DNA of 32,666 nt from an uncultured Candidatus Saccharibacteria bacterium (GTDB lineage Bacteria > Patescibacteriota > Dojkabacteria > SC72), in assembly GCA_964621195.1 (NCBI GenBank), contig CAZULJ010000005.1:11168-43833 (forward strand), read 5' to 3'. The position numbers were made by a program, and so were the translations under genes. Each line of letters begins with the position of its first letter. The stretch's first letter is position 1. Below are positions 2,712 to 22,672 of this stretch, in pieces. The notes under the pieces are model-generated. The model was not told the origin of the DNA. It did no database searches and was given only the letters and a program-made list of their open reading frames with translations.

Positions 2712-2723
2712 CAGTAATGCATA

Positions 2724-2729
2724 TATAAT
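2724..2729 (+). promoter_or_regulatory. -10 box 5 nt upstream of the pilD ATG (candidate leaderless promoter)
   Basis: Perfect TATAAT at 2724-2729 and ATG at 2735. No clear -35 was found. Confidence 0.5.
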
Positions 2730-2734
2730 GGAGT

Positions 2735-6329: not shown

Positions 6330-7292
6330 ATGACAAAAAACATAAAAAGTATGTACTCTGGGCAAGCAATTGCCATCGTTATGGTTATACTTGTAGTTGC
6401 AACTGTATTGGGAGCATCACTCTACTCAAGAACACTGAAAAACAAGGATGCAGCAATCAATACAAAAGATTCAATGCTCGCAGTTGAGCAAGCAGACAGC
6501 TTACTTGACCTATTTGTCCGTGCCGACTATCAATTCCTCCAAGATATGTATGCCACTATTCAACAGGATGGAGAAAAGACTTTTGATGATCTTGGTCAGC
6601 TTAGAACTTTTCTGTCAGACTATAACATAGATACTGGGCTGTTGGACAAGGAGGATGCATGGTGTGATGATGGTAGTACAGGGTCATCAATAAAACTAAC
6701 TATTAGCGAAGCAGATCCTGCAGACTTTGTTGATGTTCGAGTTGGTTCTTCAAGAGTTTTTAATTTGGCAGAAAGCGGGCTTGTTGCAACTGCCCCATGT
6801 GGTGTTACTTTGACCTTTGAGGCTAGAGACAACGCGCCTACAATATTTGTGGTAAAGGAAATTTATGGAGATGGTACACATATTGAAGAGTATGTTAACG
6901 ATGGTGCCTCCGTTGACGATATGATTGCATACTGTTTTGAACCAGATGGCTCGGCATGTTCAGATATCTCTGGGTTTGCGGCCCCAGCTGGATCCTTTCA
7001 AGCTCTTAGTGCAGGTAGAACTCTCGGTATAGATTTTGCTAAAACAAGAAATGGGTATCCACTTGCTCAAATTAGAATTATACCTTTGAACTTAACTTTA
7101 GGGGTATCTCATACTCCAACAGGTACATGTACTGGAAATGAGTTCTCATATATGAAAGTGAATGCTGCAGTTAACTGCTATGGATCCTTTAGAGAGAAGC
7201 AGATTATGATCCCAGGTGCTGATAGTCTTGGCTACTCTTCACTTTTTGACTATACTATTTACAATATTGGTACATTAAGACCTAATAACTAA
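6330..7292 (+). CDS. Minor pilin, PilX/GspK-like
   Basis: SG|QAIAIVMVILVVATVLG lacks E5, as is typical of PilX/GspK. It is the last and largest of the four-gene minor-pilin set. Confidence 0.72.
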   Translation: MTKNIKSMYSGQAIAIVMVILVVATVLGASLYSRTLKNKDAAINTKDSMLAVEQADSLLDLFVRADYQFLQDMYATIQQDGEKTFDDLGQLRTFLSDYNIDTGLLDKEDAWCDDGSTGSSIKLTISEADPADFVDVRVGSSRVFNLAESGLVATAPCGVTLTFEARDNAPTIFVVKEIYGDGTHIEEYVNDGASVDDMIAYCFEPDGSACSDISGFAAPAGSFQALSAGRTLGIDFAKTRNGYPLAQIRIIPLNLTLGVSHTPTGTCTGNEFSYMKVNAAVNCYGSFREKQIMIPGADSLGYSSLFDYTIYNIGTLRPNN

Positions 7293-7309: not shown

Positions 7310-7696
7310 ATGGCAGAGCAAATTAGAAAAATATTGATAGTAGAGGATGAGGCTCCCCTACTCGATTCTTATGCAGAATTAGTAGAAGCTGCAGGGTTTG
7401 TACCTCTAAAAGCTCTTGATGGATATCAGGGTTTAGATATATTGGCAAACAACATTGGCCAGATTGATCTAGTATTACTTGACCTTATGATGCCAGGAGT
7501 TGATGGCCTTGAGGTTATAAAAACGATAAAGGCAAATGAAGAAAAGTATGGAGAGATGCCAATAGTTATTCTTACAAACATGACTAGTGAGTCCGTTGTT
7601 AAGGAAGCTTTCAATATCGGGGCATCATCATACTTAGTAAAAACAGATCTTGATTATGAAGGTCTTATGAAAGAGTTAGACAAGTTCTTAGGTTAA
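7310..7696 (+). CDS. Single-domain response regulator (CheY-like receiver)
   Basis: ILIVEDE, phosphoacceptor LLDLMMPGVDG, IVILTN and YLVK. No output domain (128 aa). Confidence 0.93.
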   Translation: MAEQIRKILIVEDEAPLLDSYAELVEAAGFVPLKALDGYQGLDILANNIGQIDLVLLDLMMPGVDGLEVIKTIKANEEKYGEMPIVILTNMTSESVVKEAFNIGASSYLVKTDLDYEGLMKELDKFLG

Positions 7697-7727: not shown

Positions 7728-8756
7728 GTGAAAATAGTTTTAAACAAAAGAAAATCTTTCTGGATTGTTTTTATGGTTTTATTCCTGTCTCTCCTAATAG
7801 GCTTAGTATATTTTTTCTATTCTAGCAACTTGTATAGGAATTATTTTTCTGGAAGATTTGATAGGTACGGAGAACTACTTTCTAAATGTGATGAAAAAAC
7901 AAATGATGGGAAGAGAATTTATAAATGTTCTGCACTTCTGAATTACGTTGATGTAAGTAAACAAGAGAAGGATTGTATTATCTTATCATATATTTCAGGT
8001 GATCCAAGTATTGAAAACAAAGAGATTTGTGAAGATTTTGAAATTATTGAATGGGATGAAGAAGTATTTAAAAAGGAAGAGAGATTTCCCGTATATCTAG
8101 AATTTATATATACTGGGAACTACATTCAGGGTTTTTCACTTGAGAAAATTCAAATTGAGTGGATGACAGATGATGAAACATCGATATTTACAAATTTACT
8201 TTCAGAGATTGGTGTCTCACTTACGAATTTAGCCACAAGGAGAGATTACAACATAGAACAGAGTGGATATTACTTCCAACCCCTTTCTGAAGAATTTTTT
8301 AATGGTAGTGTTGGAGTTGTTAATTTTGCACAAGCCAGAATTAAGGAATTTGCATTTGATGAAGGTATTGTAACTGTAAATTCTGAACTACTTATCAATG
8401 GGTTTTCAAGAGAATTAACATTAATAAGTAGGAAATTCCTCTATCAAAGAGATCCTATGGATGAGAATCTGCTAGAGGTTAAAAGAGAGAATTTATCTGA
8501 CTTAGATTTTAATAAAGAATATCAATTATCTGCTTTTTATCTTACTAAGTCAATTGATGAAGAGACATTTAAGAAAAAATGTTCAAACCCTGAAGAGATT
8601 GACATTTTTACACAAGCTTTTTGTTCTAGCTTTGAAACTTTGGAGATATCGGAGTATGTAATAGATATTGAGAAGTATTTAAATGAACAATTACTACTCG
8701 AGGGGGGCTTGCAACTGGATAAGGTAAAATTTTTTTATCTAGTTACATATGAGTAG
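7728..8756 (+). CDS. Hypothetical single-pass membrane protein, cassette 1 partner (paralog of 15174..16208)
   Basis: GTG start, N-terminal basic residues plus a TM helix, six Cys alignable with 15174..16208. Overlaps the next gene by 8 nt. Confidence 0.75.
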   Translation: MKIVLNKRKSFWIVFMVLFLSLLIGLVYFFYSSNLYRNYFSGRFDRYGELLSKCDEKTNDGKRIYKCSALLNYVDVSKQEKDCIILSYISGDPSIENKEICEDFEIIEWDEEVFKKEERFPVYLEFIYTGNYIQGFSLEKIQIEWMTDDETSIFTNLLSEIGVSLTNLATRRDYNIEQSGYYFQPLSEEFFNGSVGVVNFAQARIKEFAFDEGIVTVNSELLINGFSRELTLISRKFLYQRDPMDENLLEVKRENLSDLDFNKEYQLSAFYLTKSIDEETFKKKCSNPEEIDIFTQAFCSSFETLEISEYVIDIEKYLNEQLLLEGGLQLDKVKFFYLVTYE

Positions 8757-11139
8757 AAAAATATTTCAAAAAATTCTACTTTTATTATTACTTCCATTGC
8801 TAATCTTTATAAGCAAATCAGACACTTATGCACAAAGTACATACGATTGTACTCGTTGGGGTATGTATTGTCAGTTACCTGGAGGTATAATAAATGGTTT
8901 TTGGTATGAATGGTACTGGGGAGGATGCAGAAGATACCCAGATTCTGGAGGGTGGACTTGGCGTTGTACCGGTACAGATTCAGATTGTACAGAAAGTAGA
9001 TATAGGACTTACTACAGCTCTGAAGATGATTGTCTTGCCGGTAGAGATCCTAAGGGTACTGGCTGTTGCGGTAGTACTCCAACAATTCCACCTTGTAATG
9101 ATTGTACACTAGGCTCTTGTCCTGCTCCGCTAACAGAAACAGGTCTTGAGGAGTTCAAACTTTTGAATTATCGTGTATGCCAAAGAACAGGTAGCTGTGC
9201 GGGTCCTAAATACGGAGATTGTTACGAGAACAAAACAGGATCCGACCCAACAGCAAGTATTCAAGTATTCCCCGATGGTGTAGCCTCTACCCTTGGTTGT
9301 GTCTCTAATACCTACTCTAGCACCTATGTAAACAACAGAGTTAATATGGTAGGAACATATACAGACGCAGATGGGGGAACAGATATAGAAGCGATATACG
9401 TGTGGTTTAAAACGGATATTACAACCCCTAATACCCCTAAGTATATAGACCTAAATAACGATTCGGGTCAAACAGGTAGAACATACACAAGTAATAGCTT
9501 TGGCTTCATGATGCACAAAGAGGGAGGCAACTGGGTAGCATATGTTCCTAGCCTTGTAGGTGGAGGTAGTGATAAATGGGTAAGAGCTAGCATGTCAGGT
9601 AGTAACTTTGATATTTTGGGTCCTAGTGGTAGTGCATTAATCCGTATAGAGAATCCAGTAACAAATATTTCTGGTAACAATGTAACCTTAAACTTCTATG
9701 CCCACTTTGGTCCATCAGCAGCTAGTGATGGCTTGTACAACATATTTGTAATGGCTAATGATGTATTTGGATTTACCCCCTATGACAACTACGGTCCAGG
9801 AGTAACTAAGATGGGAGATTACTTTGATGAGGAAGAGATAAGGTATCATCAGGTATGGAGTGACAGTAGTAGAGATTGGGGATTGGACAAGATCTCCCCT
9901 ACCATCTCTTACTTAAATACTGAAGTTACTGCTCCTACTAAGATAAAGTTCTCTTGGGAAGCGGGTGATTTAAGGAACATTTATGGCATAGTTGGAAATC
10001 TATACAGATCTGATGGAGTTGTTAACTTTGAATCAGTACGAGATGTTACGTTAACATCTCTTGGGACAAAAACGGTTAATACCCCGTACCTACCAGAAGA
10101 ATTGGGCGAAAACGTTGTAGGTCATCTCAACAATGAATTTTTTGTAAGAGCGATGACACCTGGTAGTGTAAATCTTACAGGCGAGGTTGAAATGAACGTT
10201 GGTAGTAATAGAGAGGGCAGTATAATTTACTATGTTACTGCATTCGATATTGCATGCAATCCAGGAGCATTGTATTCAACATATGATCTTGAAGACTGGA
10301 TTATTACCTATGGAGGACTACTCTATTCTTCTACAGGTATAGAGTTTTATGTAAAGAATGTTGATGACCCAAATCTCTGGAATCCGGTGCTACTCTTAAA
10401 CAAAATCAGTCCACTATTTGCCGACATTTCAAGCGAATTGTATGGTAATGCTCTCAGTTTTCCATCTCCTTTGGAAAAGAGTGTTCAAAACAAATCCTTC
10501 TCTGTTAGCCCATTTGTAGCCTACAAGAGCTTTGACTTCTACAACGACTTGAGAAGGAGCTACGAAAGAAGAGAATTAGGTTTGCCCTCGAGTGTCAGCA
10601 GGTTAAATCCAAGTATATCTACTCTAACTGGTTACCTAAGTGGATATGGATCTGGTTCGGTTAAGGTCTTAAATAGAGTTGGAGATCTTACAATTGGAGA
10701 TACAAATGCTTTCTACTGCGATCAAAAAGGTTTGTTTTTCGTAAGTGGAGACTTGATAGTGAATCATGAAATATTGAATTCTGATAGAAACTCCGATGCA
10801 TGTATTTTTGTTGTAGATGGGGATATGATAATTAATCCTGGACCAGATTCTACGAATGGCGCGATTGGGACCTTGGGATATGATGAATTGAATGGATACT
10901 TCTTAGTGAATGGTTCTGTAACTATCAACGAAGACCCTTTCTACAATGGATTGTATATTAATGGAGGTATTCAATCTCTTGGTGGTATAGATATGAACAG
11001 GTATCTTGGACTTGATCATAGAAGCTTGTATCCTTTATTTTTTGTTGAGAACAGCTCAAAATATGGGTATACAAGTAGTGAATTAATTGGAGATCAAATA
11101 GATATTGTAAAGGTTGAACCAGGATACAAACCATATTAA
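8749..11139 (+). CDS. Secreted Cys-rich modular protein, putative adhesin (cassette 1)
   Basis: Sec-type signal (..SDTYA|Q), Trp/Tyr/Cys-rich N-terminal domain, one Cys repeat, beta-rich core, C-terminal domain with repeated (F/V)V.G.L.I motifs. Ends IDIVKVEPGYKPY. Confidence 0.75.
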   Translation: MSRKIFQKILLLLLLPLLIFISKSDTYAQSTYDCTRWGMYCQLPGGIINGFWYEWYWGGCRRYPDSGGWTWRCTGTDSDCTESRYRTYYSSEDDCLAGRDPKGTGCCGSTPTIPPCNDCTLGSCPAPLTETGLEEFKLLNYRVCQRTGSCAGPKYGDCYENKTGSDPTASIQVFPDGVASTLGCVSNTYSSTYVNNRVNMVGTYTDADGGTDIEAIYVWFKTDITTPNTPKYIDLNNDSGQTGRTYTSNSFGFMMHKEGGNWVAYVPSLVGGGSDKWVRASMSGSNFDILGPSGSALIRIENPVTNISGNNVTLNFYAHFGPSAASDGLYNIFVMANDVFGFTPYDNYGPGVTKMGDYFDEEEIRYHQVWSDSSRDWGLDKISPTISYLNTEVTAPTKIKFSWEAGDLRNIYGIVGNLYRSDGVVNFESVRDVTLTSLGTKTVNTPYLPEELGENVVGHLNNEFFVRAMTPGSVNLTGEVEMNVGSNREGSIIYYVTAFDIACNPGALYSTYDLEDWIITYGGLLYSSTGIEFYVKNVDDPNLWNPVLLLNKISPLFADISSELYGNALSFPSPLEKSVQNKSFSVSPFVAYKSFDFYNDLRRSYERRELGLPSSVSRLNPSISTLTGYLSGYGSGSVKVLNRVGDLTIGDTNAFYCDQKGLFFVSGDLIVNHEILNSDRNSDACIFVVDGDMIINPGPDSTNGAIGTLGYDELNGYFLVNGSVTINEDPFYNGLYINGGIQSLGGIDMNRYLGLDHRSLYPLFFVENSSKYGYTSSELIGDQIDIVKVEPGYKPY
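9547..10424 (+). repeat. 878-bp direct repeat, copy 1 (identical to 13594..14471)
   Basis: Line-by-line manual comparison found no mismatch. Constant offset 4047 nt, no indels. Confidence 0.92.
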
Positions 11140-11219
11140 GAAAATATATAGAACTCTTTAAACTTTCATGTAATAATGGATTTGTAAAGAGGAAGGTGTA
11201 ATTTTTTACTAAAAATTAA

Positions 11220-12887
11220 ATGCTGCCTATTAAAAAATATATCCTAATATTCTTAGCTATAATCGCTGGAATCTTAGCTATCTTCTTTGGCTACACATAC
11301 TATTTAATGGTGACTTCTAATGGCTCTCATCTTACTATGTTTGTTGAGACAAAAGAGGATGTTTTAGGCCAGAAGATTAGAACAGATTTCCCTATCCAAG
11401 GTGAAGATGATATTACATACGTGTTCCCTGTTGTTTTTGAAAAAGTATTAGAAACAGATTCCGTATACAAATTTACTCTTTCTCCTACTGTATTCCCGAA
11501 AGACTCTGTTCGTGGTGAGAAATTTGAGTATGAGTTGGGTAAAGATAAATATGAGGGAGACATTGATATCAAAAGTATTGAACCAGGGGCAAAGGTATAT
11601 ATAAATCTCCAGTATGATTTGTCAAAGAATTTAAGATACTTCCTTGAATACTCCGTTTGTACTGTAAAGAAGGCTTACTCTGATCTCTTCAAATTAGATT
11701 TAACCTGTGGAAGAGGCAATTGTATAGTAAATCGTGATATTGATAATTGGGATATAAAGAAAATATCAAGCGAGATTACTGAGAAAGTAGAATATTTTGA
11801 AAGTTACAATCCGGAGGAGCTATCTACAAGATTGTTAAATTTCTTCATTACAGATGATTTCGGATATTTCAATCCTGAGGCTTTTAGATATGTATCTACT
11901 CAAACATCAAGGCCTGATGGAACATTTAGTTTCGCAACTCAGAGCATTAACAATCCTCAGGATGGTAAAAACAGTACACCTTCAATATTTTGGCTACTTA
12001 CGGGTGTCTCTGGAGCTTTAGAAAGAGAGGATATCGATTTAGAAGGGTACATGTCTACTGTTTTAGGATATTTAGATGGTGAGACATACGGTGAGGCATA
12101 CTTCCAGAACTGTACCGCATCTTCGTATATTATTGAAAACTTAAAATCTTGTTCATCTCAGTCTTGTGAAGGTGTAAAAAAGAAGGCATTCGAATATTGC
12201 GAGGAGACATTACAAACTGCTATCGCTAAGTACGATACCACTGCCCAAGCATTTTCCCAATATACAAGAAAATCGATATTGAGAGGATATCTCTTCGGTA
12301 TTTCTTCGGAAATGATTAAATACAACAAGATTGCACAGGCAATGGGTCTCGAACCAAAGTATACAATGAACGATTTGAGTTCTTTCTATGAGAAGGGTAA
12401 AGGGGTCTTAGGAAATTCAGAGGAGATTTTACCAATCTGTTATCAATTGAAATCGGCAAAAGACATATACAATGAATATCCTTTAGATTCTTTGCTTTTA
12501 GATATTGAGATATTGTATGGAAAGATTGATGGCTTAGAAACCATCTGCGACAAAGATTCTAGAAATACTTTCTGTGAGTTATCAATATCCGAAAAATTAG
12601 TATGTGTTGATGCATTAATGGGTTACAAGAATATTGAGGCAAAAAATCTTCTTTCGGATATTTTCTACAGACATTACTTTGAGAGTCCTGGGGCGGTGAA
12701 GATGGTGACATATGAAAACTGGAGATTCTCACCATTTAGTGAAGAAAATCCTAACTCTTATACGAAGATTGAAGATTATGGATATTTGACATCTATCGTT
12801 GATGATGAGGGATTTGTAACACACTCTGCACATATTGGTGATTCATATTACTTTATAAATTTACTGAGACTTTTAAACAATGAGTAA
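11220..12887 (+). CDS. Hypothetical single-pass membrane protein, cassette 2 partner (555 aa, Cys-containing, not obviously homologous to the other two partners)
   Basis: N-terminal TM helix, beta-like N-terminal part, helical-looking C-terminal part with many Cys. 8-nt overlap with the next gene. Confidence 0.72.
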   Translation: MLPIKKYILIFLAIIAGILAIFFGYTYYLMVTSNGSHLTMFVETKEDVLGQKIRTDFPIQGEDDITYVFPVVFEKVLETDSVYKFTLSPTVFPKDSVRGEKFEYELGKDKYEGDIDIKSIEPGAKVYINLQYDLSKNLRYFLEYSVCTVKKAYSDLFKLDLTCGRGNCIVNRDIDNWDIKKISSEITEKVEYFESYNPEELSTRLLNFFITDDFGYFNPEAFRYVSTQTSRPDGTFSFATQSINNPQDGKNSTPSIFWLLTGVSGALEREDIDLEGYMSTVLGYLDGETYGEAYFQNCTASSYIIENLKSCSSQSCEGVKKKAFEYCEETLQTAIAKYDTTAQAFSQYTRKSILRGYLFGISSEMIKYNKIAQAMGLEPKYTMNDLSSFYEKGKGVLGNSEEILPICYQLKSAKDIYNEYPLDSLLLDIEILYGKIDGLETICDKDSRNTFCELSISEKLVCVDALMGYKNIEAKNLLSDIFYRHYFESPGAVKMVTYENWRFSPFSEENPNSYTKIEDYGYLTSIVDDEGFVTHSAHIGDSYYFINLLRLLNNE

Positions 12888-15165
12888 AGTAATTAAATAT
12901 TTAAAGGTATTCTCAATATTGTTGCTATCTGTTGCTACTGTATTGATTTTGAAAAATGACAACCTATATGCTTGGAACGGATGTTGTTCCCCCTCTTCTC
13001 AATGGTCTGGAACATTATGGAATGGATGCTGTTACTCTGGTGGTGGTGGTGATAACTGTTGCTCCTTGGGCGATGCCATTGCTTCTGGTTGTGAAGGTAT
13101 TCTTCCATGTCCGAACTGTCAAGGTGGTGATCCACCATGTGAGGAGTGCACGCTAGGTAGTTGTCCAGCTCCTTTAACTAATACAGGTGATCCTGAGTTT
13201 AAGCTTGAGGATTACAGAAGGTGCCAGAATGGTGAATATTGTGATGATGAATGGAAATACGGAGATTGCTATGAAAACAAAACAGGATCTGATCCAACAG
13301 CTAGTATCCAGGTATTCCCTGATGGAGTAGCCTCCACCCTTGGTTGTGTGTCTAATACCTACTCTAGTACCTATGTAAACAACCGAGTTAATATGGTAGG
13401 CACATACACTGATGCAGATGGAGGAACAGATATAGAAGCGATATACGTATGGTTTAAAACAGAGAGTGCAATCCCTAATACCCCTAAGTATATAGACTTG
13501 AATAACGATTCGGGTCAAACAGGTAGTACGTACACAAGTAATAGCTTTGGATTCATGATGCACAAAGAAGGCGGTAGCTGGGTCGCGTATGTACCTAGCC
13601 TTGTAGGTGGAGGTAGTGATAAATGGGTAAGAGCTAGCATGTCAGGTAGTAACTTTGATATTTTGGGTCCTAGTGGTAGTGCATTAATCCGTATAGAGAA
13701 TCCAGTAACAAATATTTCTGGTAACAATGTAACCTTAAACTTCTATGCCCACTTTGGTCCATCAGCAGCTAGTGATGGCTTGTACAACATATTTGTAATG
13801 GCTAATGATGTATTTGGATTTACCCCCTATGACAACTACGGTCCAGGAGTAACTAAGATGGGAGATTACTTTGATGAGGAAGAGATAAGGTATCATCAGG
13901 TATGGAGTGACAGTAGTAGAGATTGGGGATTGGACAAGATCTCCCCTACCATCTCTTACTTAAATACTGAAGTTACTGCTCCTACTAAGATAAAGTTCTC
14001 TTGGGAAGCGGGTGATTTAAGGAACATTTATGGCATAGTTGGAAATCTATACAGATCTGATGGAGTTGTTAACTTTGAATCAGTACGAGATGTTACGTTA
14101 ACATCTCTTGGGACAAAAACGGTTAATACCCCGTACCTACCAGAAGAATTGGGCGAAAACGTTGTAGGTCATCTCAACAATGAATTTTTTGTAAGAGCGA
14201 TGACACCTGGTAGTGTAAATCTTACAGGCGAGGTTGAAATGAACGTTGGTAGTAATAGAGAGGGCAGTATAATTTACTATGTTACTGCATTCGATATTGC
14301 ATGCAATCCAGGAGCATTGTATTCAACATATGATCTTGAAGACTGGATTATTACCTATGGAGGACTACTCTATTCTTCTACAGGTATAGAGTTTTATGTA
14401 AAGAATGTTGATGACCCAAATCTCTGGAATCCGGTGCTACTCTTAAACAAAATCAGTCCACTATTTGCCGATATTTCAACCGAAATGTATGGTAACTCTT
14501 TGAGTAATCCTGGTGTATTAGATAAGAGCAATGTGACGAAGTCTTACAGTATTAGTCCGTTTACGGGATACACAGTCTATGATTTCTATAAAGATGTAAA
14601 AACAACCTTTGAAAGAAGGGAATTAGGAATCGAAAATATTGTGAGATTAAACCCCTCAACATCTTCTCTTACTGGGAGTTTAGGTGGGGGGACAGTTAAA
14701 GTATTAGATAGAAATGGGAATCTTACAGTTGGTGATGCTAATCCTTTTGTTTGTAGCGGTAAGGGAATATTCTTTGTAAGTGGTAATTTGACAATAAATA
14801 ACTCAATACTTAATTCTGATCTGGCATCTGATGCATGTATTTTTGTTGTAGATGGAGATATGATAATAAATCCTGGTAGAGATTCCTCGGGGGGATTGAT
14901 AGGGTATGACGAATTGAATGGGTATTTCCTAATCAATGGAAATATAATTATCAATGAAGATAGCGCATTTGATGGGATATATGTTAGTGGCGGTCTGCAA
15001 TCTCTCGGTGGTTTTGAGATGAGTAGATACTTGGGTCTCGCATATAGAGATATGCATCCACTACTTGTAGTAAACCATCACTCAAAATATGGAATATTTA
15101 GTAGTACACTAATTGGAACTCCAATTGATATTGTAAAAACTGAGGTAGGTTTTAAGATATATTAA
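12880..15165 (+). CDS. Secreted Cys-rich modular protein, putative adhesin (cassette 2), paralog of 8749..11139
   Basis: Signal ..DNLYA|W, distinct short tip with WNGCC twice, one Cys repeat, core nearly identical to cassette 1. Ends IDIVKTEVGFKIY. Confidence 0.75.
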   Translation: MSKVIKYLKVFSILLLSVATVLILKNDNLYAWNGCCSPSSQWSGTLWNGCCYSGGGGDNCCSLGDAIASGCEGILPCPNCQGGDPPCEECTLGSCPAPLTNTGDPEFKLEDYRRCQNGEYCDDEWKYGDCYENKTGSDPTASIQVFPDGVASTLGCVSNTYSSTYVNNRVNMVGTYTDADGGTDIEAIYVWFKTESAIPNTPKYIDLNNDSGQTGSTYTSNSFGFMMHKEGGSWVAYVPSLVGGGSDKWVRASMSGSNFDILGPSGSALIRIENPVTNISGNNVTLNFYAHFGPSAASDGLYNIFVMANDVFGFTPYDNYGPGVTKMGDYFDEEEIRYHQVWSDSSRDWGLDKISPTISYLNTEVTAPTKIKFSWEAGDLRNIYGIVGNLYRSDGVVNFESVRDVTLTSLGTKTVNTPYLPEELGENVVGHLNNEFFVRAMTPGSVNLTGEVEMNVGSNREGSIIYYVTAFDIACNPGALYSTYDLEDWIITYGGLLYSSTGIEFYVKNVDDPNLWNPVLLLNKISPLFADISTEMYGNSLSNPGVLDKSNVTKSYSISPFTGYTVYDFYKDVKTTFERRELGIENIVRLNPSTSSLTGSLGGGTVKVLDRNGNLTVGDANPFVCSGKGIFFVSGNLTINNSILNSDLASDACIFVVDGDMIINPGRDSSGGLIGYDELNGYFLINGNIIINEDSAFDGIYVSGGLQSLGGFEMSRYLGLAYRDMHPLLVVNHHSKYGIFSSTLIGTPIDIVKTEVGFKIY
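13594..14471 (+). repeat. 878-bp direct repeat, copy 2 (identical to 9547..10424)
   Basis: As for copy 1. Confidence 0.92.
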
Positions 15166-15173
15166 AAACTTGA

Positions 15174-16208
15174 ATGAAAATACTTGTTAGTAAAAAAACA
15201 TCTGTAATATTTACAATGCTTGGTGTTATTCTTGTTCTTTCATCTGTTCTGGGAGGGTATTATCTCTATGAGAGAAATGTAATCATAAATGGTCAGTATG
15301 AATTAGATAAATACAGAGAGGAAACCGAGCTATGTACAAGAGAAGGTTTTTTTGGAAAGTTGAATTTTCGCTGTGAAGGATACATAGATATTTACCAAGA
15401 AAAGGATGGTAGAGATTGTTTCTCAATGGCTTTATTAAGTCCAGAAAAGGAGCTCTACTATAAGGAGATATGTGAACCAAAAGATTCCATAGAGTGGGAT
15501 AGAGGGACAATGATTTCTGAGAAAAAAGTCCCAGTATTTGTAGAGTTTTCATATTCAAGGCCAATGTTCGGTGGTTATGTCATAGATAGCATCAAATACA
15601 CCCTTATGTCCGATGAAGAGATTCAGAATTTTGCAGGCAAACTTGTGGAAGAAAGAATACCTGTACCTCATCTACGTACCCAACTAGAAGAGGATCTGGA
15701 ATATAAAGGTTACTATTTATCAAATGAACTTGAAGTTGCTGGGGGGGGAGGCCTAAGTTTTTTTGTACTCTTTAGTGCCAGTATAAAAGAAGTCGCGGTA
15801 TTGGGTGATAATTTAAGTATTACAGTACAGTTCTCAAACGAAGGTAAGGAATATGAATCAGTTTTTGTTGTAAAATCGGTTATGTTCCAAAAGGATATGT
15901 CTACAAATTACATCTCTTTAGATGTGAGTAACATTCAGGACTATGAATTCTCCGATTCTTCTCAAATCCTCTTGATGTATCTTGGAGAAGACACCAACCT
16001 TAGAAAGGAAGAGATTCTTTCCTACTGTTCTTCAGGTAATATATTGGCTGAATTCTTCTCCATTTGTTCAATAGTTGAAGATATTAATATAGATTCTTAC
16101 CGTATTGCAAATGCCGAAGAATACTTTAGATCTTCTTTAGAAAAGAATGCTGATGGCTTCGTTGATCTTGATAAGTTTCTGCTAAGTGGAATTCTTTTTA
16201 GATTGTAG
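15174..16208 (+). CDS. Hypothetical single-pass membrane protein, cassette 3 partner (paralog of 7728..8756)
   Basis: Shares DC..., KEICE...IEWD, PV(Y/F).EF.Y and M(T/S)D(D/E)E plus a C-terminal Cys pair with 7728..8756. Contains a G8 run at 15741-15748. Confidence 0.75.
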   Translation: MKILVSKKTSVIFTMLGVILVLSSVLGGYYLYERNVIINGQYELDKYREETELCTREGFFGKLNFRCEGYIDIYQEKDGRDCFSMALLSPEKELYYKEICEPKDSIEWDRGTMISEKKVPVFVEFSYSRPMFGGYVIDSIKYTLMSDEEIQNFAGKLVEERIPVPHLRTQLEEDLEYKGYYLSNELEVAGGGGLSFFVLFSASIKEVAVLGDNLSITVQFSNEGKEYESVFVVKSVMFQKDMSTNYISLDVSNIQDYEFSDSSQILLMYLGEDTNLRKEEILSYCSSGNILAEFFSICSIVEDINIDSYRIANAEEYFRSSLEKNADGFVDLDKFLLSGILFRL

Positions 16209-16210
16209 AA

Positions 16211-19200
16211 ATGAAAATTGGAAAATTAAAAACAATTATACTTTCAATATTTTTTCTGACAACATTGTTTGTTGTGTTAGAAATATCTAAAGGAGATGTT
16301 TCTGCAATGATCTGTGGAACTAACTACTATTGTACAACATCAAATCAATGGGTTAATTCTTATGTTCGTATCGGTGGTGGCTCATGCCATTACATTACTT
16401 ATTACTCGTGCAATGGAAATGATACAAACTGTCAGGAAGACTATGTTGATATATATTCTGATGCAGAATGTGCAGTAAAAACTCACGATGACTATGGTTG
16501 TTGTATATATGATTCACCTCCTGCTTGTAACAATTGTACACCATCGTCTCCACCTGCTTGTCCAGCGGGTACAACAGAGACAAATACGGGAGACTTCCAT
16601 TCCTCGACAACTTCAAGTTGTGATAGAGGCTCTGGTTGTGATCCAAGATATAATACTAGTACGAGAAACTGCTACTGTTCACTTTGTACGCCACCATCAT
16701 GTACCCCAACCTACTCTACAACCAATCTAGGTTTTGGTTCAATATCTCTTTCTTGTCAAAACTCTCCCACTGGAGACTCTCGTTGTGATTACAGATCAAA
16801 TACTTGCTACTGTTACCAATGTACTCCTGCAAACTGTCCTGCTGATTTGAGCAATACGGATCTCGGTGTTGGAGTTAGTACTCATACGGTATCTTGTACC
16901 AATGCATGTAGCTCAAGTAACAGTCGGGCCTGTTATTGTAGAGATTGTACATTACCAGTTCCTTCTGGAACAACATTAACAAATACTGGCCGACAATCTA
17001 CTGATCCTACCTATCAAAGCACAAGCTGTAGTAAGGGTACCGGATGTACTCCAAAAAGTGCACCATTGTACTGTACAAGATGTACTCCTACAGCATGTGG
17101 CCCCACCTACGCTACTTCAAACCAGGGATATGGCACCTTGAACTTTACTTGTAATAATACTTTGGCTTCCTGTGGTACTGAGACCAGAGCTTGTTACTGC
17201 TATAGCTGTACACCACCGGCCTGTGCACCAACCTACAGTACTACAAATTATGGATATGGCTCAGTTACATTAAGCTGTACGAATGCATGTAGTACAACTA
17301 GTAACAGAACCTGTTATATTGATAGATGTAGTAACTGTACACTACCAAACTGCCCATCTCCACTCACAAATACCCCTACCACAGCAGATCCAAATATGGA
17401 ACTTACAAACTTCAGATCATGTACACGTAGTGCACCTTGCGGTGGTCCAGCAAACTATGGAGCATGTTATGAGGTTGTAAGCCCACAACCAACAACAAGT
17501 TTACAAATATATCCTGATGCTGCAAATGTTTATAACTTCTCGAGTAGTACACATACGGGAACTAGAACACCGCTTTACAACCTTAATGACCCAATACCTA
17601 TGACTGCTACATATACAGATGTCAATGGAGCCACTGATATTGAGGCTGTATCTGTTTGGTTTAGAGATGAAAGTCTTTCTGGGGAGATAAATACTCCGTT
17701 AGTTTTTATGGAGACGGGTGGACCTTCGGTACCTGCACCACAAACGGAAACAAATAATAGCTGGGGCTTTATGATGAGATGGAATGGCTCGACATGGCTT
17801 CCATATGTACCTTCTTACCCTTCAGCGCCTAGTACTCCAGCTTGGGTCCCTGCCTTGTATGCTAGCAATTCTTTTGTAATTTCAGGTCCTAATGGACTAC
17901 AAATGGTGAGAGTTACAATAGGTCATTCTCTTCAGAGTAATATCACTAGGTCTGGAAATAACGTAGTATTACCATTCCAACTTAGTTTTAACTTCTCCTC
18001 AGGATATGATAGCGTAGCTCAGGTTGATTACCAGACTTACCTAATGGGTAACGATGTCTTCAGTTTTACACCAAGTGATAACTATGCCTTCTCGGTTGAG
18101 GGTTACTGGCAGGGTGGTCAATTACGATACCGAACGAGCCAATTACCTGCACAGCTTTATGCAAGGCAGTGGGCATTAACAGGGTATACATGGAGTGTAG
18201 ATAAGGATGTTCCAGAAGTAGAAGACCTTACTATGACAGTAATTGGTGATACAACTTTAAGATTAAGTTGGAATGTAACTGATTCTAGAGAAATATATGC
18301 TGTTGTGGGAAATATCTATGCATCAATTAGTATGCCTCCAAACCCTGATGATCTAGTAATTACTGGCACAGGTTTGGATGTGAACTCCCCTCATCAACTT
18401 ATTACAGATACTACAGATCTTGCAAAATTGAATACAGGTTATGCTTTCAGAGGTTTAAATATTGGCGGTACAACATATACAAACAATGTAACAATCGATA
18501 TCGGTTCAAATATTGAGGGAAGTCTTGTAGTATACCTCACGGCTTTTGATATGGCCGGTAATATGAGTACAAGAAGTTTAACCTACTCTCTTGGCGATTG
18601 GATAGCTACGTATGGTGGATTTGTATACTCTTCTGAGGGTAGAGACTATGAAATGAAGACAATAGAAAGTGATACCGCTTGGGATTCAGTACCTGTTCTA
18701 GCTGGGCTGGATCCAACCCTTGCGGATGTCTCTACAGAGCTTTTCGCAGATAATCAAAGTAGTGGTACATTGCCATCAGCTCTTGATAGAAGTACCGAGT
18801 TACGTTCTTACCACATGAGACCATTTAGTGTGAATGTAGAAATGGATAGTCTGTATCAGGAATTAAAACAGGCTTACAATGATAGGGAAATTGAAGGAAA
18901 GGTGGATCTAACCTTGGACTTACCTATGATTACAAGTCTAAATGGTAATCTAAGTGATATTGGGAGCTGTACTGACTCTTCAAGGGTATGTATTTTAAAA
19001 AGACAAGGAGATTTGGATGTCGGGAATGTATCAACGTTTAATTGTGATCAATGGGGAGTATTCTTTGTAGAAGGAAATCTAACTATTTCAAGAAACATTG
19101 TTAATGCAAATCCTTCCTATGACGCATGTATCTTTGTAGTTGGAGGTGAAGTTTTAATTGAAGATGGACAGGCACATTCTAACGCTTTACTGATAGGGTA

Positions 19201-19471
19201 TGATCAGATCAATGCATATATAATGGCGGATGGAGCAGTAAATATCCAAGCTGAGCTTGGTGCAGCTGCAAAGTATGATGGTGTATTTGTAGGCGGTGGT
19301 TTACATAGTTTAACAGGCATTAATATGGATAGAAGTCTTAAGTTGGCAGACAGAAATATATACCCTGCTCTACTTGTTAAATATCATCCTAAATACTCGG
19401 TATTGAGTAATCTTGTATTTGGTAGTCAGATTGATATACTAAAAACAGAATTAGGTTTTAAACCATACTAG
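16211..19471 (+). CDS. Large secreted Cys-rich repeat protein, putative adhesin (cassette 3, 1086 aa)
   Basis: Signal ..GDVSA|M, tip alignable to that of cassette 1, seven Cys repeats, diverged core (TYTDVNGATDIEAVSVWF vs TYTDADGGTDIEAIYVWF). Ends IDILKTELGFKPY. Confidence 0.75.
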   Translation: MKIGKLKTIILSIFFLTTLFVVLEISKGDVSAMICGTNYYCTTSNQWVNSYVRIGGGSCHYITYYSCNGNDTNCQEDYVDIYSDAECAVKTHDDYGCCIYDSPPACNNCTPSSPPACPAGTTETNTGDFHSSTTSSCDRGSGCDPRYNTSTRNCYCSLCTPPSCTPTYSTTNLGFGSISLSCQNSPTGDSRCDYRSNTCYCYQCTPANCPADLSNTDLGVGVSTHTVSCTNACSSSNSRACYCRDCTLPVPSGTTLTNTGRQSTDPTYQSTSCSKGTGCTPKSAPLYCTRCTPTACGPTYATSNQGYGTLNFTCNNTLASCGTETRACYCYSCTPPACAPTYSTTNYGYGSVTLSCTNACSTTSNRTCYIDRCSNCTLPNCPSPLTNTPTTADPNMELTNFRSCTRSAPCGGPANYGACYEVVSPQPTTSLQIYPDAANVYNFSSSTHTGTRTPLYNLNDPIPMTATYTDVNGATDIEAVSVWFRDESLSGEINTPLVFMETGGPSVPAPQTETNNSWGFMMRWNGSTWLPYVPSYPSAPSTPAWVPALYASNSFVISGPNGLQMVRVTIGHSLQSNITRSGNNVVLPFQLSFNFSSGYDSVAQVDYQTYLMGNDVFSFTPSDNYAFSVEGYWQGGQLRYRTSQLPAQLYARQWALTGYTWSVDKDVPEVEDLTMTVIGDTTLRLSWNVTDSREIYAVVGNIYASISMPPNPDDLVITGTGLDVNSPHQLITDTTDLAKLNTGYAFRGLNIGGTTYTNNVTIDIGSNIEGSLVVYLTAFDMAGNMSTRSLTYSLGDWIATYGGFVYSSEGRDYEMKTIESDTAWDSVPVLAGLDPTLADVSTELFADNQSSGTLPSALDRSTELRSYHMRPFSVNVEMDSLYQELKQAYNDREIEGKVDLTLDLPMITSLNGNLSDIGSCTDSSRVCILKRQGDLDVGNVSTFNCDQWGVFFVEGNLTISRNIVNANPSYDACIFVVGGEVLIEDGQAHSNALLIGYDQINAYIMADGAVNIQAELGAAAKYDGVFVGGGLHSLTGINMDRSLKLADRNIYPALLVKYHPKYSVLSNLVFGSQIDILKTELGFKPY
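16526..17473 (+). repeat. Seven degenerate ~40-51-aa Cys/Thr-rich protein repeats (C-T-P/L-x2-C-P...TN.G...C...C...CY-C/E)
   Basis: Units end in RNCYC, NTCYC, RACYC, PLYC, RACYC, RTCYI and GACYE. Diverged at DNA level. Confidence 0.85.
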
Positions 19472-19518
19472 TTTTCTGATATTATTAATGTAGTCATAAT
19501 TTAACTGTCCAAAATAAT

Positions 19519-20547
19519 ATGGCTAAACTGCCTGACCATGTAGGAATAGACTTTGGAACACACTCCGTAAAGGCTGTTGAGCTTAAAAACTCTGGAACCT
19601 CTCCTGAGTTGATTAATCTTGGTAGTCAGATAACTCCAAAGGGAGTTATAAATAGTGAAGACAAACAAGATCAAAAGAAGTTAGCAGATGTTCTTAAGAA
19701 GCTTTACGATGATTCGAAGATAAAGAACACAAATGTTGTAATGGCATTGCCAGAGTTTTCTGTTTTTACAAGATTCTTAGAATTTCCTGGTGTTAAGAAA
19801 GAAGAGCTAAGAGATGCGGTTTTCTTTGAAGCAAAGCAGTATATCCCTATGTCTATAAACGATGTACATATGAGTTTTGTAACCATTGGTTTCAATGAAG
19901 AAAAAAATGCTCCAAGAGTTCTTTTGGTTGCAGCACCTAAAAAGGTTGTAAATATATACATGGATATTGCTAAAATGGCTGACTTAGATCTTGTAGCTAT
20001 AGAAACAGAATCTGTTGCTATGGGTAGAGCAATGTACAAGTCTACTAATATAAAAAATCTTGTAATGTTAGATTTTGGAGCAAATAGCACAGACATGAGC
20101 ATTATGAGTGACGGATACCTTGTATTTTCTCAAAGTATCGCTATTGGGTCAGACTCTTTAACACAGGCTATTGTTAATAAATTCAACTTTGAATACAGTA
20201 GAGCTGAAGAATTTAAGAGAAACTATGGATTAGTACCTACAGTATTGGAAGGTAAAATCTATGGAGCACTTTCTCCAATTGTTGAATCTATACTCCTAGA
20301 GGTACAAAGAGGTGTTGAATTCTATAAAAACAAAACCTCAAGCTCCTCTCCAAGCGATTATCAATTGAATGGTGATGGTGCCCTACTCCCTGGTTTGTCT
20401 GAATTTGTTTCAAAATCTTTGGGTGTTAATGCAAAGGTTTCAAATCCATGGAATGGTATTAATGTTGATAGTAAATTTAAAGATATTGTTGCAAAGGGTG
20501 GACCATCATACTCTGTTGCAATAGGTTTAGCATTAAAAGATGAATAA
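19519..20547 (+). CDS. pilM: Type IV pilus assembly protein PilM
   Basis: Actin-like motifs VGIDFGTHSVKAVEL and LDFGANSTDMSI, EAKQYIP, VLLVAAP, ending SVAIGLALK. Confidence 0.92.
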   Translation: MAKLPDHVGIDFGTHSVKAVELKNSGTSPELINLGSQITPKGVINSEDKQDQKKLADVLKKLYDDSKIKNTNVVMALPEFSVFTRFLEFPGVKKEELRDAVFFEAKQYIPMSINDVHMSFVTIGFNEEKNAPRVLLVAAPKKVVNIYMDIAKMADLDLVAIETESVAMGRAMYKSTNIKNLVMLDFGANSTDMSIMSDGYLVFSQSIAIGSDSLTQAIVNKFNFEYSRAEEFKRNYGLVPTVLEGKIYGALSPIVESILLEVQRGVEFYKNKTSSSSPSDYQLNGDGALLPGLSEFVSKSLGVNAKVSNPWNGINVDSKFKDIVAKGGPSYSVAIGLALKDE

Positions 20548-21211
20548 GGAGCCGAATCAGACACAAACCGTGCAGAGTCCTAAAGTAGCACCTGTTACTA
20601 CTCCGGTTAGTGCACCTAAAACAATGGTTGAACAACTTTCTAGCGAATCACAAGGCCTCACAGAGGGCTTTAACTTAATGCCTTCTATGACAAAGGAAGA
20701 GATAGTTGTAGAGAAAACAAAAACCACTGTAAATTTGGGATCTGTTGTAAGTCTAATTGTTCTTGTTTTGATAATTCTTGGTGTAGTTGGTTTTAATATT
20801 GTTTCAAAGCAGATGCTCAATAGTAAGAAAGAGGAGCTTTTTGCTTTAGAAAATATTGTAAATCAACAATCAGATAAAATTATTGCAAATGATGAAATTG
20901 TTGATAGAGCAATTCTTTACAATACTGTTAAAACTGGAGCATTCTCTCATAAGGCAATCATAGAATTTATATCAGCAATAAGCCAAAAGGTTGGAAATAT
21001 TGAAATCAGGAGCGTAATGATATCTGAGAACCTTGAATTCACATATGTTGGATATACGGCCAGTTTAGAGAATGTATCTAAACTCTGGTATATGTTGGGT
21101 ATTGATGAAAATATTGAAAATATTAATCTAAAGTCAGTTGGGAAATCTAATGGATCTGTATCTTTTACTTTTGAGGGTCTTTTAAATATTAAAAATTTTT
21201 CAAATAAATAG
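20540..21211 (+). CDS. pilN: PilN-like alignment-complex protein
   Basis: FNLMP (INLLP-like PilM-binding motif) before a single TM, then a coiled coil and a small beta/alpha domain. Overlaps pilM. Carries a Q/P/T-rich N-terminal extension. Confidence 0.7.
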   Translation: MNKEPNQTQTVQSPKVAPVTTPVSAPKTMVEQLSSESQGLTEGFNLMPSMTKEEIVVEKTKTTVNLGSVVSLIVLVLIILGVVGFNIVSKQMLNSKKEELFALENIVNQQSDKIIANDEIVDRAILYNTVKTGAFSHKAIIEFISAISQKVGNIEIRSVMISENLEFTYVGYTASLENVSKLWYMLGIDENIENINLKSVGKSNGSVSFTFEGLLNIKNFSNK

Positions 21212-22315: not shown

Positions 22316-22334
22316 ATCTTCGGAGGATTATGAA

Positions 22335-22634: not shown

Positions 22635-22643
22635 AGCGCTGTT

Positions 22644-22672
22644 ATTTTAACAGATGAGATATTAATATTCAA
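22644..22672 (-). promoter_or_regulatory. Candidate internal promoter for rpsP
   Basis: Minus strand TTGAAT, 17 nt, TGn-TAAAAT. The -10 ends 9 nt before the ATG, implying a very short leader. Confidence 0.6.

Follow-up and report, generated by a model that had tools for sequence, protein, structure and literature searches.

Type IV pili (T4P) are nearly universal in CPR/Patescibacteria, where they are thought to be the means by which such bacteria find and hold their hosts, and they drive host binding in Saccharibacteria. In bacteriophages, the receptor-binding end of the tail fibre is swapped together with an adjacent, specific chaperone gene on a conserved body (gp37/gp38 of T4, stf/tfa of lambda, S/U of Mu), which gives rise to host-range mosaics. 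Among non-pilin proteins of the pilus tip, the last ~10-12 residues of PilC/PilY1 add as a β-strand to PilK-family pilins, and the same is predicted for the non-homologous MshQ (PMC13533445). The T4P loci of CPR bacteria are also known to encode large accessory-domain proteins without a PilD-type signal, namely PilX1 and PilX2 of TM7x, which are proposed to be tip adhesins and of which PilX2 is needed for efficient host binding (PMC11623550). The locus described below offers a test case for the newly described β-strand addition in a monoderm-like, deeply divergent lineage.

The pilus locus and its three cassettes

The window, that is, the whole stretch of 32,666 nt analysed, is from an uncultured Dojkabacteria genome (GCA_964621195.1, contig CAZULJ010000005.1, positions 11,168-43,833 of the forward strand). 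The genes of its pilus locus are as follows.

63-851, + strand: PilT-like ATPase, 3′ part (Pfam T2SSE, E = 9e-46; motif AVRNLIREGK inside)
855-2096, + strand: PilC platform protein (Pfam T2SSF, E = 5e-63)
2134-2661, 2735-3499 and 3496-4062, + strand: pilin, prepilin peptidase PilD and second pilin (Pfam N_methyl, A24_N_bact)
4125-5045, 5045-5611 and 5608-6309, + strand: three minor pilins (N_methyl matches; prepilin-type N-termini with Glu)
6330-7292, + strand: mp4X, fourth and largest minor pilin, of GspK/PilX type by its position and the lack of Glu5 (…SG/QAIAIVMV…)
7310-7696, + strand: stand-alone CheY-like receiver domain (Pfam Response_reg, E = 2e-20)
7728-8756, + strand: A1, 342 aa, single-pass (N-in) membrane protein by hydropathy, A1/A3 family, partner of B1
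8749-11139, + strand: B1, 796 aa, secreted modular protein (AF2 pLDDT 80.3)
11220-12887, + strand: A2, 555 aa, single-pass membrane protein, second partner family (long form)
12880-15165, + strand: B2, 761 aa, B1 paralogue with a 'CC…CC…CC' tip
15174-16208, + strand: A3, 344 aa, single-pass membrane protein, A1/A3 family (G8 tract at 15741)
16211-19471, + strand: B3, paralogue of 1086 aa
19519-20547, 20540-21211 and 21214-21912, + strand: PilM (Pfam PilM_2, E = 5e-52) and two PilN/PilO-like bitopic proteins (synteny conserved)

Full-length relatives of the PilT-like ATPase measure 532-534 aa. The order of the minor-pilin genes is the same in all Dojkabacteria loci compared, and the CheY-like receiver gene is present in every locus having that flank. 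The last and largest of the four syntenic minor pilins, mp4X, has a prepilin-like N-terminus (…YSG/QAIAIVMVILVV…) without the Glu at +5 that mp1 and mp3 carry. It has no Pfam match at E ≤ 0.1, no sequence likeness to GspK/PilX or T2SSK was detected, and a profile of 12 orthologues recovered no pilin when searched against PDB sequences. We also noticed that mp4X has a conserved C-terminus of its own (…LFDYTIYN…), which might provide the last strand in cis, a point against donation of that strand by B.

The original prediction described three tandem two-gene units, starting at 7728/8749, 11220/12880 and 15174/16211 and lying between the PilX-like gene and pilM. The reading frames are exactly as it gave them and so is their placement between these two genes, but they do not directly follow the PilX-like gene, as the CheY-like gene intervenes. 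The couplings it reported are likewise those of the sequence, with 8-nt overlaps for A1/B1 and A2/B2 and a 2-nt gap for A3/B3, and the whole cluster looks like one co-directional operon. Topology was called from hydropathy by a heuristic on the predicted proteins, and the calls bear out the pairing of a single-pass A protein with a signal-peptide-bearing B protein: the A proteins have a single N-terminal hydrophobic segment behind a short basic N-terminus, and in the B proteins the N-terminal hydrophobic segment is followed by an Ala-rich, cleavage-like site.

B1 and B2 are 81% identical overall and share 36% identity with B3 over ~720 aa (E = 1e-135), and A1 and A3 are 27% identical along their full length (E = 9e-30); judged by these alignments, the homology among B1, B2 and B3 and between A1 and A3 is far above chance. 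A2 has no detectable relation to A1/A3, and the A proteins are handled here as two families because a profile-profile comparison gave no relation between them. The bodies of B1 and B2 are 84% identical, with unrelated tips and unrelated partners, and those of B1 and B3 are 36% identical, with related partners and weakly related tips.

Architecture of the B proteins

The segments of the B genes referred to in the following are listed first.

8836-9093, + strand: B1 hypervariable Cys-rich tip, aa 30-115, of type 'Y.C..G.YC…C.GTD..C' (region of lowest conservation; low pLDDT)
9094-9228, + strand: B1 single 6-Cys module, aa 116-160 (regular expression and alignment)
9229-10425, + strand: B1 core, three predicted β-sandwich (Ig/FN3-like) domains, aa 161-559 (AF2)
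9547-10424, + strand: perfect 878-nt repeat, copy 1, in B1 (gene-conversion tract)
10528-11100, + strand: B1 predicted C-terminal right-handed β-helix with a flanking long helix, aa 594-784 (AF2 pLDDT 86.7, pTM 0.85)
11101-11136, + strand: B1 C-terminal peptide …DQIDIVKVEPGYKPY (near-invariant; putative docking strand; disordered when modelled as a monomer)
13594-14471, + strand: perfect 878-nt repeat, copy 2, in B2
15127-15162, + strand: B2 C-terminal peptide …IDIVKTEVGFKIY
16526-17467, + strand: B3, seven 6-Cys modules of ~45 aa each in a tandem array, aa 106-419
19433-19468, + strand: B3 C-terminal peptide …IDILKTELGFKPY

One architecture is common to B1-B3, as had been predicted, and comprises from N- to C-terminus a hypervariable Cys-rich tip, the 6-Cys module(s) (one in B1, one in B2, seven in B3), a conserved core of three Ig-like domains, a β-helix C-domain and a near-invariant terminal peptide. 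That the N-terminus varies and the C-terminus is conserved is also borne out, with conservation of 0.32 in the tip versus 0.73 in the last ~12 residues. The B1 tip is similar only to that of the relative P0003 (76% identical), and the B2 tip shares 89% identity with the tip of P0004 from HGW-Dojkabacteria-1.

Foldseek matches to the modelled B1 core are MSCRAMM (ClfA/B, Sdr), Als, AgI/II, integrin-leg and FN3 proteins, and a BFVD fold search returned generic FN3/Ig proteins alone. The likeness to MSCRAMM and other sortase-anchored adhesins consists of tandem Ig-like domains and nothing beyond. For the B1 C-domain, the closest PDB folds among the Foldseek matches listed are of the IBP-1/DUF3494 type (TM 0.42-0.47, probability ~1, E = 0.05-0.3), a likeness at the level of the fold alone, with no Pfam Ice_binding match; ComZ is found among the PDB fold matches at rank 49 (E = 2.2). 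As modelled, the β-helix C-domain is unlike any known pilus protein. Pfam DUF7305, on which a literature search returned nothing, weakly matches four of 22 C-domains of relatives (best E = 1e-3) and is absent from B1.

None of the six A and B proteins has a match in Pfam or NCBIfam (E ≤ 1 for the PilY1/PilC test), and PDB sequence searches with A2, with A3 and with profiles of the B family and of both A families gave nothing meaningful. A PilY1 structure is absent from the 50 matches listed in each of two PDB fold searches, and the AlphaFold models consist of Ig-like domains and a β-helix, in agreement with the earlier statement that no PilY1 β-propeller is seen. Because they have no propeller, the B proteins are not PilY1 homologues.

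The terminal peptide (...[DN]I[VL]K[TV]E.G[FY]K.Y-COOH) is the most conserved stretch in the B family. The motif is retained in 142 of 184 relatives, many distant members included, and is always the end of the protein. In B1 its pLDDT is below 50 in both monomer models (full protein and C-domain), which fits a strand that folds upon a partner.

Relatives and exchange of partner and tip

A word search with B1 gave 39 matches and a profile search 650 cluster representatives, and all of the named matches are from Dojkabacteria. As far as their sequences tell, the B proteins are an unannotated family found lineage-wide in Dojkabacteria, for which the original term 'CPR analogue' is too broad. Informative flanks are present in 26 of the 33 close loci (both flanks in 16, one in 10), and B lies in the slot of PilY1, between mp4X plus the receiver gene and pilM, in 26/26 of them and elsewhere in 0, which places this family of 650 representatives in a tip-adhesin slot. 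Two more distant B subfamilies (P0129, P0105) are directly upstream of pilM, and P0167 is beside a convergent minor-pilin operon and pilC. The occupation of the PilY1 slot agrees with the original prediction.

Satellite modules are found outside the main locus (L035, L036 twice, L049, L050, L051), and in 6/6 of them a single-pass membrane ORF precedes the B-like gene and an mp4X paralogue immediately follows it. The mp4X paralogues of L049, L050 and L051 match profile A7 with E = 1e-69 to 1e-102, and the three of L035 and L036, which are themselves rows of that profile, match mp4X by BLAST with E = 2e-19 to 3e-32. In longer B relatives the conserved module is preceded, on its N-terminal side, by Laminin_G_3, VWA, pentaxin and F5/8-type-C domains, and one relative has a weak polysaccharide-lyase match.

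Overlaps of 4-17 nt recur in most A/B pairs. The suggestion of a dedicated partner for each tip is upheld insofar as partner family tracks tip family (odds ratio 11 over 36 pairs that are phylogenetically non-independent), but not for ~5 second-position B genes in other genomes, which have no partner ORF. As A and tip are adjacent stretches of DNA, co-inheritance alone could yield the correlation between them. Loci L052 and L001 have 88.5% nucleotide identity overall and 92% within the body of B; their A genes and the first ~95-155 codons of B are without nucleotide similarity and belong to different families. From strain to strain, the A gene and the tip-coding 5′ end of B thus behave as a single block that can be exchanged. 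Between genomes whose flanks are 88% identical in nucleotides or 90% in amino acids, A genes are only 20-28% identical; A1 is 38% identical to the partner of P0003, and A3, 28% identical to its HGW-1 orthologue, is the fastest-evolving gene of the locus. No fold or motif, CxxC included, was recognised in the A families by Pfam, NCBIfam and PDB sequence and profile searches, and database searches for A relatives yielded just one protein besides the query, both when run with one sequence and when run with a profile of 20.

The perfect 878-nt repeat shared by B1 and B2 lies within their bodies, and B bodies are homogenised or shuffled by gene conversion. B1 is not a recent duplicate of B2, as its tip (by the match to P0003) and its C-domain (~60% identical to that of B2) are old and the middle alone is identical. 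The sister strain L037 is just 57-61% identical to the window at 14008-14407. Independent contigs break ~66 nt inside the right end of repeat copy 1, and five or more contigs, independent and from other samples, cover the B1 3′ end, the intergenic region, A2 and the 5′ part of B2 at 98-99% identity. An assembly chimera behind the third cassette is ruled out by these contigs, which cross the B1/A2/B2 junction, and the tandem order of the cassettes is not an assembly artefact.

The word 'interchangeable', taken in the sense of switching, finds no support: the cluster contains no invertible segment, and the B genes are free of phase-variable tracts. Inversion and slipped-strand mispairing were rejected on scans for repeats, for promoters and terminators and for homopolymers: inverted repeats are weak (≤29 nt, 71-95% complementary), scattered within coding sequences and flank no cassette, promoter and terminator matches in the cluster are fewer than the shuffled expectation, and the sole notable homopolymer is the G8 inside A3.

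Proposed function, alternatives and known systems

We consider it reasonably probable that B1-B3 are alternative, Sec-exported non-pilin adhesins of the T4P tip, functional analogues but not homologues of PilY1/PilC/MshQ, with the docking and the role of A as follows. The hypervariable tip would be the receptor-binding end, Cys-rich here and lectin-like or made of VWA or discoidin domains in relatives, the Cys modules and Ig-like domains would form a stalk, and the β-helix domain with its free, near-invariant C-terminal peptide would be the conserved docking module. The linkage of the satellite modules to a K-type pilin and the terminal peptide together point to PilY1/PilC-like docking on the tip complex, in which the peptide may add as a β-strand to mp4X during assembly of the minor-pilin initiation complex, leaving one adhesin atop each pilus. 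Since the same peptide is found in all B paralogues, a single minor-pilin set could load any of them, and we propose that mixed pili with different tips would result. The A protein would be anchored in the membrane and act outside the cytoplasm as an accessory factor dedicated to one tip, that of the B protein which follows, most likely as a holdase or folding chaperone that, in a cell without an outer membrane, keeps B at the membrane until loading.

On this basis the specificity-determining end would be exchanged along with a dedicated membrane protein, the types of tip and partner could become genome-based markers for the host range of uncultured Dojkabacteria, and the A proteins would represent membrane chaperones of a new, adhesin-specific class. 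A further step, which we put forward tentatively and hold to be somewhat doubtful, is that the tips are plug-and-play: a universal docking peptide would mount any adhesin from the main-locus cassettes and the satellite A-B-K modules, and horizontal exchange of 'membrane chaperone + tip', along with gene conversion of the stalk, would reset which host or receptor is recognised.

The membrane anchor of A and its translational coupling to B can also be read in another way, namely that B is a cell-surface adhesin off the pilus, held in the envelope by A or by its β-helix/C-terminal module and merely co-transcribed, so that the pilus pulls and A-B grips the host. The resemblance to wall-anchored Ig-like adhesins and the operon-like layout agree with it, and the aromatic-ended C-terminal motif could be an envelope-anchoring signal. 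We regard this as unlikely, since it leaves unexplained both the private K-type minor pilin that accompanies each satellite B and the constant position of B between the minor pilins and pilM. An anchor should moreover bind the conserved part of B, yet A co-varies with the variable tip, and the B C-termini (…E.GFKPY) have no LPXTG, hydrophobic tail or other known anchor motif.

Sec signal peptides on large multi-domain secreted proteins in a type IV filament locus, together with the weak polysaccharide-lyase match in one relative, might instead suggest that B is cargo, a secreted effector or enzyme acting on the host and exported by the filament as a type II secretion-like piston, with A as a targeting or escort factor. 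An invariant peptide at the extreme C-terminus is not known from T2SS substrates. The architecture of B is that of an adhesin, and Pfam and NCBIfam searches found no catalytic domain in B1-B3. CPR cells have neither an outer membrane nor PilQ, so Sec export by itself would suffice for release (PMC6744442), and we judge a cargo role highly improbable. Least credible of all is a polymorphic recognition or antagonism pair (toxin/immunity or self/non-self) with an active tip that A protects against or masks in the producer, which would suit the extremely fast divergence of the A genes and the swapping of the variable end as a block with an adjoining small gene, but whose N-terminal variable domain and upstream partner are arranged the opposite way round from known polymorphic toxin loci, whose B1-B3 proteins gave no toxin domain in Pfam or NCBIfam, and whose relatives bear lectin, VWA and discoidin binding domains instead of toxins.

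Read as alternative tip adhesins, the B proteins compare with PilY1/PilC of Pseudomonas, Neisseria and Myxococcus. Both are Sec-exported non-pilins encoded after a K/PilX-type minor pilin (with the receiver gene in between here), both combine a conserved C-terminal module with a variable N-terminal binding region (VWA- or lectin-like in some members), both occur as several paralogues per genome, and both end in a short conserved extreme C-terminus, which in PilC/PilY1 docks to PilK (PMC13533445). Unlike PilY1/PilC, B has no propeller and no Pfam match, its conserved module is modelled as a β-helix and its stalk as Ig-like and Cys modules, a single minor-pilin set serves as many as three paralogues within one operon, and each of these has an upstream single-pass membrane partner, in an organism without an outer membrane. 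Like B, MshQ from the MSHA pilus of Vibrio, whose gene lies downstream of mshDOP, is a large non-PilY1 protein in the same syntenic slot, and it is a predicted C-terminal strand donor to a PilK homologue (PMC13533445); it thus sets a precedent for analogous, non-homologous tip proteins. No sequence relation between the two was detected in NCBIfam and Pfam, and MshQ is encoded singly, with neither a partner protein nor a cassette array. PilX1 and PilX2 of TM7x differ by their published folds, a jelly-roll lectin-like domain and a seven-bladed propeller versus the Ig-like and β-helix models of B, and are single genes for which neither a partner protein nor an exchange of cassettes is described (PMC11623550).

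An arrangement reminiscent of the exchangeable block is that of phage tail fibres, with no homology implied: there the variable end is C-terminal and the chaperone downstream, whereas in B the variable end is N-terminal and the partner is upstream and membrane-anchored. If the tips do prove to be plug-and-play, the locus would represent in cells what tail-fibre/chaperone mosaicism is in phages, and the host range of uncultured episymbionts could be read from their genomes.

The pilus locus and its three gene pairs

Every gene between window positions 63 and 21912 is closely spaced on the plus strand, and the closest genome is that of Candidatus Dojkabacteria HGW-Dojkabacteria-1, with 95% identity in the PilT-like protein and 89% in PilM. 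The features, with the basis of assignment in brackets, are:

63-851, +, PilT-like ATPase fragment (Pfam)
855-2096, +, PilC (Pfam)
2134-4062, +, two pilins either side of a prepilin peptidase gene (Pfam)
4125-6309, +, three minor pilins, mp1 to mp3, with N-methyl-type N-termini (Pfam)
6330-7292, +, mp4X, 320 aa, the fourth and largest pilin-like protein (position and N-terminus …SG/QAIAIVMV…)
7310-7696, +, CheY-like receiver (Pfam)
7728-8756 and 8749-11139, +, first gene pair, A1 and B1
11220-12887 and 12880-15165, +, second pair, A2 and B2
15174-16208 and 16211-19471, +, third pair, A3 and B3
19519-20547, +, PilM (Pfam)
20540-21211 and 21214-21912, +, two bitopic PilN/O-like proteins following PilM (Pfam)

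The sequence of mp4X has no Pfam match and no similarity to GspK/PilX was found. Its N-terminus lacks Glu5, which is present in mp1 and mp3 and whose absence is a hallmark of GspK/PilX/PilK-type minor pilins; since it is also the largest of the four pilin-like proteins, we assign mp4X to that type.

The six ORFs of the pairs agree exactly with the original prediction, in length as well as in how they join (overlaps of 8 nt in the first two pairs, a 2-nt gap in the third). Each A protein starts with a few basic residues and has a single hydrophobic segment, and each B protein has a signal-peptide-like N-terminus. The pairs do lie between the PilX-like gene and pilM, but the receiver gene separates the PilX-like gene from the first cassette. 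Likewise, there is one single-pass partner per B protein, but the three partners fall into two unrelated families: A1 and A3 are 27% identical over their full length (E = 9e-30), whereas A2 has no detectable relation to either, profile-profile comparison included. B1 and B2 share 81% identity, and both align to B3 at 36% over ~720 residues (E about 1e-135). Six-cysteine modules of ~45 residues number seven in tandem in B3 and one each in B1 and B2. The tandem order is real: at least five independent contigs from other samples cross the 3′ end of B1, the 80-nt spacer, A2 and the 5′ end of B2 at 98-99% identity.

In every Dojkabacteria locus showing that flank, the stand-alone receiver (7310-7696) is kept at the same spot, after the K-type minor pilin and ahead of the first cassette, at 69-92% identity, and by analogy with PilG/PilH it may couple pilus-tip assembly to signalling. 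A close relative (L052, 1-2253) carries two T2SSE-family ATPase genes upstream of pilC, encoding a 601-aa PilB-like protein with an MshEN domain and a 532-aa protein; the truncated first ORF of the window is the orthologue of the latter and has the PilT-type AVRNLIREGK motif, yet it belongs to a protein unusually long for PilT. Beyond the cluster, the ORF at 21919-22209 (-) is the counterpart of a KhpA-like KH protein, and two opposite-strand ORFs overlap, 22330-22650 (+) and 22335-22634 (-); as the minus-strand one is ribosomal protein S16 by synteny with L052 and L001 (the HGW-Dojkabacteria-1 locus), the plus-strand one is probably spurious.

Fold and distribution of the B family

None of the six A and B proteins has a match in Pfam, NCBIfam or PDB-sequence searches. 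B relatives number 39 by word-based search, the named ones being Dojkabacteria/WS6, and 650 cluster representatives at E ≤ 1e-3 by exhaustive profile search, 227 of them at E ≤ 1e-30; in the distant members, of which the named ones are likewise Dojkabacteria, the match is restricted to the C-terminal half. An AlphaFold2 model of B1 (pLDDT 80, pTM 0.64) gives the following architecture:

Residues 30-115, tip, poorly predicted
Residues 116-160, Cys module, confident
Residues 161-559, core, three beta-sandwich domains
Residues 560-593, linker, disordered
Residues 594-784, C-domain, right-handed beta-helix with a flanking helix (modelled alone, pLDDT 86.7, pTM 0.85)
Residues 785-796, terminal peptide, pLDDT <50

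Foldseek relates the core to tandem Ig-like adhesins (ClfA/B, Sdr proteins, Als3/9, AgI/II), integrin legs and viral FN3 proteins. The nearest solved folds to the C-domain are IBP-1/DUF3494 proteins (TM 0.42-0.47, E ≥ 0.05), and 4 of 22 B C-domains match Pfam DUF7305 weakly. The models contain no propeller, in line with the lack of PilY1 beta-propeller resemblance noted in the original prediction, and on this structural ground the B family is not PilY1/PilC. In longer relatives, recognised binding domains precede the conserved module: Laminin_G_3/ConA-like lectin (one relative is annotated as a Dojkabacteria LamG protein), VWA, pentaxin, F5/8 type C (discoidin), Listeria-Bacteroides repeats and Gly_rich_2. 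The same pattern is seen in PilY1 proteins, where the binding region at the N-terminus varies and the docking module is conserved.

Scanning a single genome for each species gave 32 loci, and L001, in which the HGW-Dojkabacteria-1 locus was assembled a second time, brought the number to 33; all are Dojkabacteria except where the label is a generic TPA one and for a single 3-kb contig placed in a Bacillota bin. The B genes have mp4X-receiver upstream and pilM downstream in 16 of the 33, ten show the same arrangement on the single visible flank, seven are too short to judge, and no locus has B genes in any other context. In all 26 informative close loci the B genes thus occupy the pilus slot. 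Most loci have two cassettes, two have one, and the three in the window are exceptional (the count for L016, a fragmented locus, is unreliable). Among distant subfamilies, P0129 and P0105 lie directly upstream of pilM and P0167 adjoins a convergent minor-pilin operon and pilC; other distant members lie outside the main cluster, beside FtsH/PolA/ligase or tRNA-synthetase genes.

Exchange, homogenisation and expression of the cassettes

In a set of 36 complete A-B pairs, partner relatedness goes strongly with tip relatedness (odds ratio 11 and Fisher p about 1e-27, descriptive figures only as the pairs are non-independent). The window holds its own natural controls: B1 and B2 have bodies 84% identical with unrelated tips and partners, and B1 and B3 have bodies 36% identical with homologous partners and weakly similar tips. 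L052 and L001 share 88.5% nucleotide identity across the cluster as a whole and 92% within the B body, with no nucleotide similarity in the first partner gene and the first ~95-155 B codons; here one genome has an A1-type partner with a 'Y.C..G.YC' tip and the other an A2-type partner with a 'CC..CC..CC' tip. The window has these two alternatives for the first cassette side by side, plus A3/B3. Physical adjacency alone could explain the correlation; these sequence comparisons show partner and tip to be exchanged as one block. Partner genes evolve extremely fast (identities of 28%, for A3, and 20% between genomes whose neighbour genes are 67-95% identical), some B genes in other genomes have no partner, and sequence and profile searches gave no recognisable fold for the A proteins.

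The perfect 878-nt direct repeat of B1 and B2 (9547-10424 = 13594-14471) has a graded left edge, 340 nt at ~11% divergence chiefly in third codon positions, and a sharp right edge with an abrupt fall to ~60% identity, which from the sequence is the signature of recent gene conversion. As every other known B shares only 57-60% protein identity with this tract, the two genes have been homogenised within the window's own lineage. The repeat is real: short-read contigs from other samples stop within either copy, 66 nt from its right edge. A sister strain (L037, 1-900, aligning to window 13608-14500) is ~100% identical downstream of 14608 and 57-61% in 14008-14407, so that the third Ig-like domain of B2 is by alignment mosaic among very close strains.

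Tips that are interchangeable in the sense of switching find no support: the window showed neither an invertible segment nor convincing promoters or terminators inside the cluster, and none of the B genes has a phase-variable tract, for which reason the three tips are probably co-expressed, not alternated. A G8 homopolymer (15741-15748, a Gly run in the A3 coding sequence of a ~35% GC genome) could be a slipped-strand site acting on A3 and, via translational coupling, on B3; no length variation was seen, the A3 protein being identical in seven contigs.

Proposed docking to a K-type pilin and comparison with known systems

The most conserved part of the B proteins is the terminal dozen residues, with consensus …[DN].. 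[KQ][TV]E[VIL]G[FYIV]KP[YF]-COOH (majority-residue fraction 0.73, against 0.32 in the tip). The motif is kept in 142 of 184 relatives, many distant ones included, always at the polypeptide end, and it is disordered in B1 whether the full protein or the C-domain alone is modelled. Invariant, strictly terminal, of alternating polarity and apparently not folded on its own protein, this peptide is as expected for a strand donated to a partner. In PilC/PilY1 the final ~10-12 residues were recently demonstrated to complete the sheet of a PilK-family pilin, and similar C-terminal strand donation is predicted for the non-homologous MshQ in the same syntenic slot (PMC13533445). Alternatively, mp4X might provide its own last strand. 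A distant B-like protein of 1223 aa (L034, 15903-19574, adjoining a RuBisCO large-subunit gene) ends in …KTEVGFEAD in place of …GFKPY, and with this degenerate terminus may be a non-docking or decaying copy.

The strongest available argument that B works with the K-type pilin comes from satellite modules away from the main pilus locus in other Dojkabacteria genomes. In all six examined, a single-pass membrane ORF, a B-like gene and an mp4X paralogue are immediately adjacent, in that order:

L035, 9085-14802
L036, 10001-21037, two modules in tandem
L049, 7405-12664
L050, 5256-11733, with two paralogous membrane ORFs upstream
L051, 6901-12268

The mp4X paralogues of L049-L051 match the mp4X profile at E 1e-69 to 1e-102, and BLAST relates those of L035 and L036 to mp4X with E 2e-19 to 3e-32. 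Several modules adjoin FtsH-PolA-DNA ligase. A B gene outside the pilus locus thus carries a private K-type pilin, a pairing we liken to the PilC-PilK heterodimer. The ~6 kb downstream of the L035 module (14802-20881) has no ORF of at least 150 aa and almost no called genes, and may be non-coding, for instance an rRNA operon.

We propose that B would be exported by Sec and that an A partner specific for its tip would fold it or retain it at the membrane; in a cell lacking an outer membrane, this would usefully keep a soluble exported protein from diffusing off. The minor-pilin initiation complex would then capture B, the C-terminal peptide adding as a strand to mp4X, and B would be carried to the pilus tip; because that peptide is universal, one minor-pilin set could load any paralogue.

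Adhesins that dock at the pilus tip through their C-terminus are already known as a role. The B protein family is new, as are the array of several cassettes sharing a single minor-pilin set, the membrane partners dedicated to them, the satellite modules of A-B-K type and the exchange in blocks; literature searches found no description of the B family, the A family or Dojkabacteria pilus tips. Phage tail-fibre tip and chaperone modules are exchanged together and offer an analogy for the exchange of partner and tip. PilY1/PilC is closest to B in function, although B, lacking the defining propeller, is not a member, and MshQ sets a precedent for a protein without homology filling that role. Within the CPR, TM7x PilX1/PilX2 provide a precedent for large non-pilin tip candidates, with folds that differ from B (PMC11623550).
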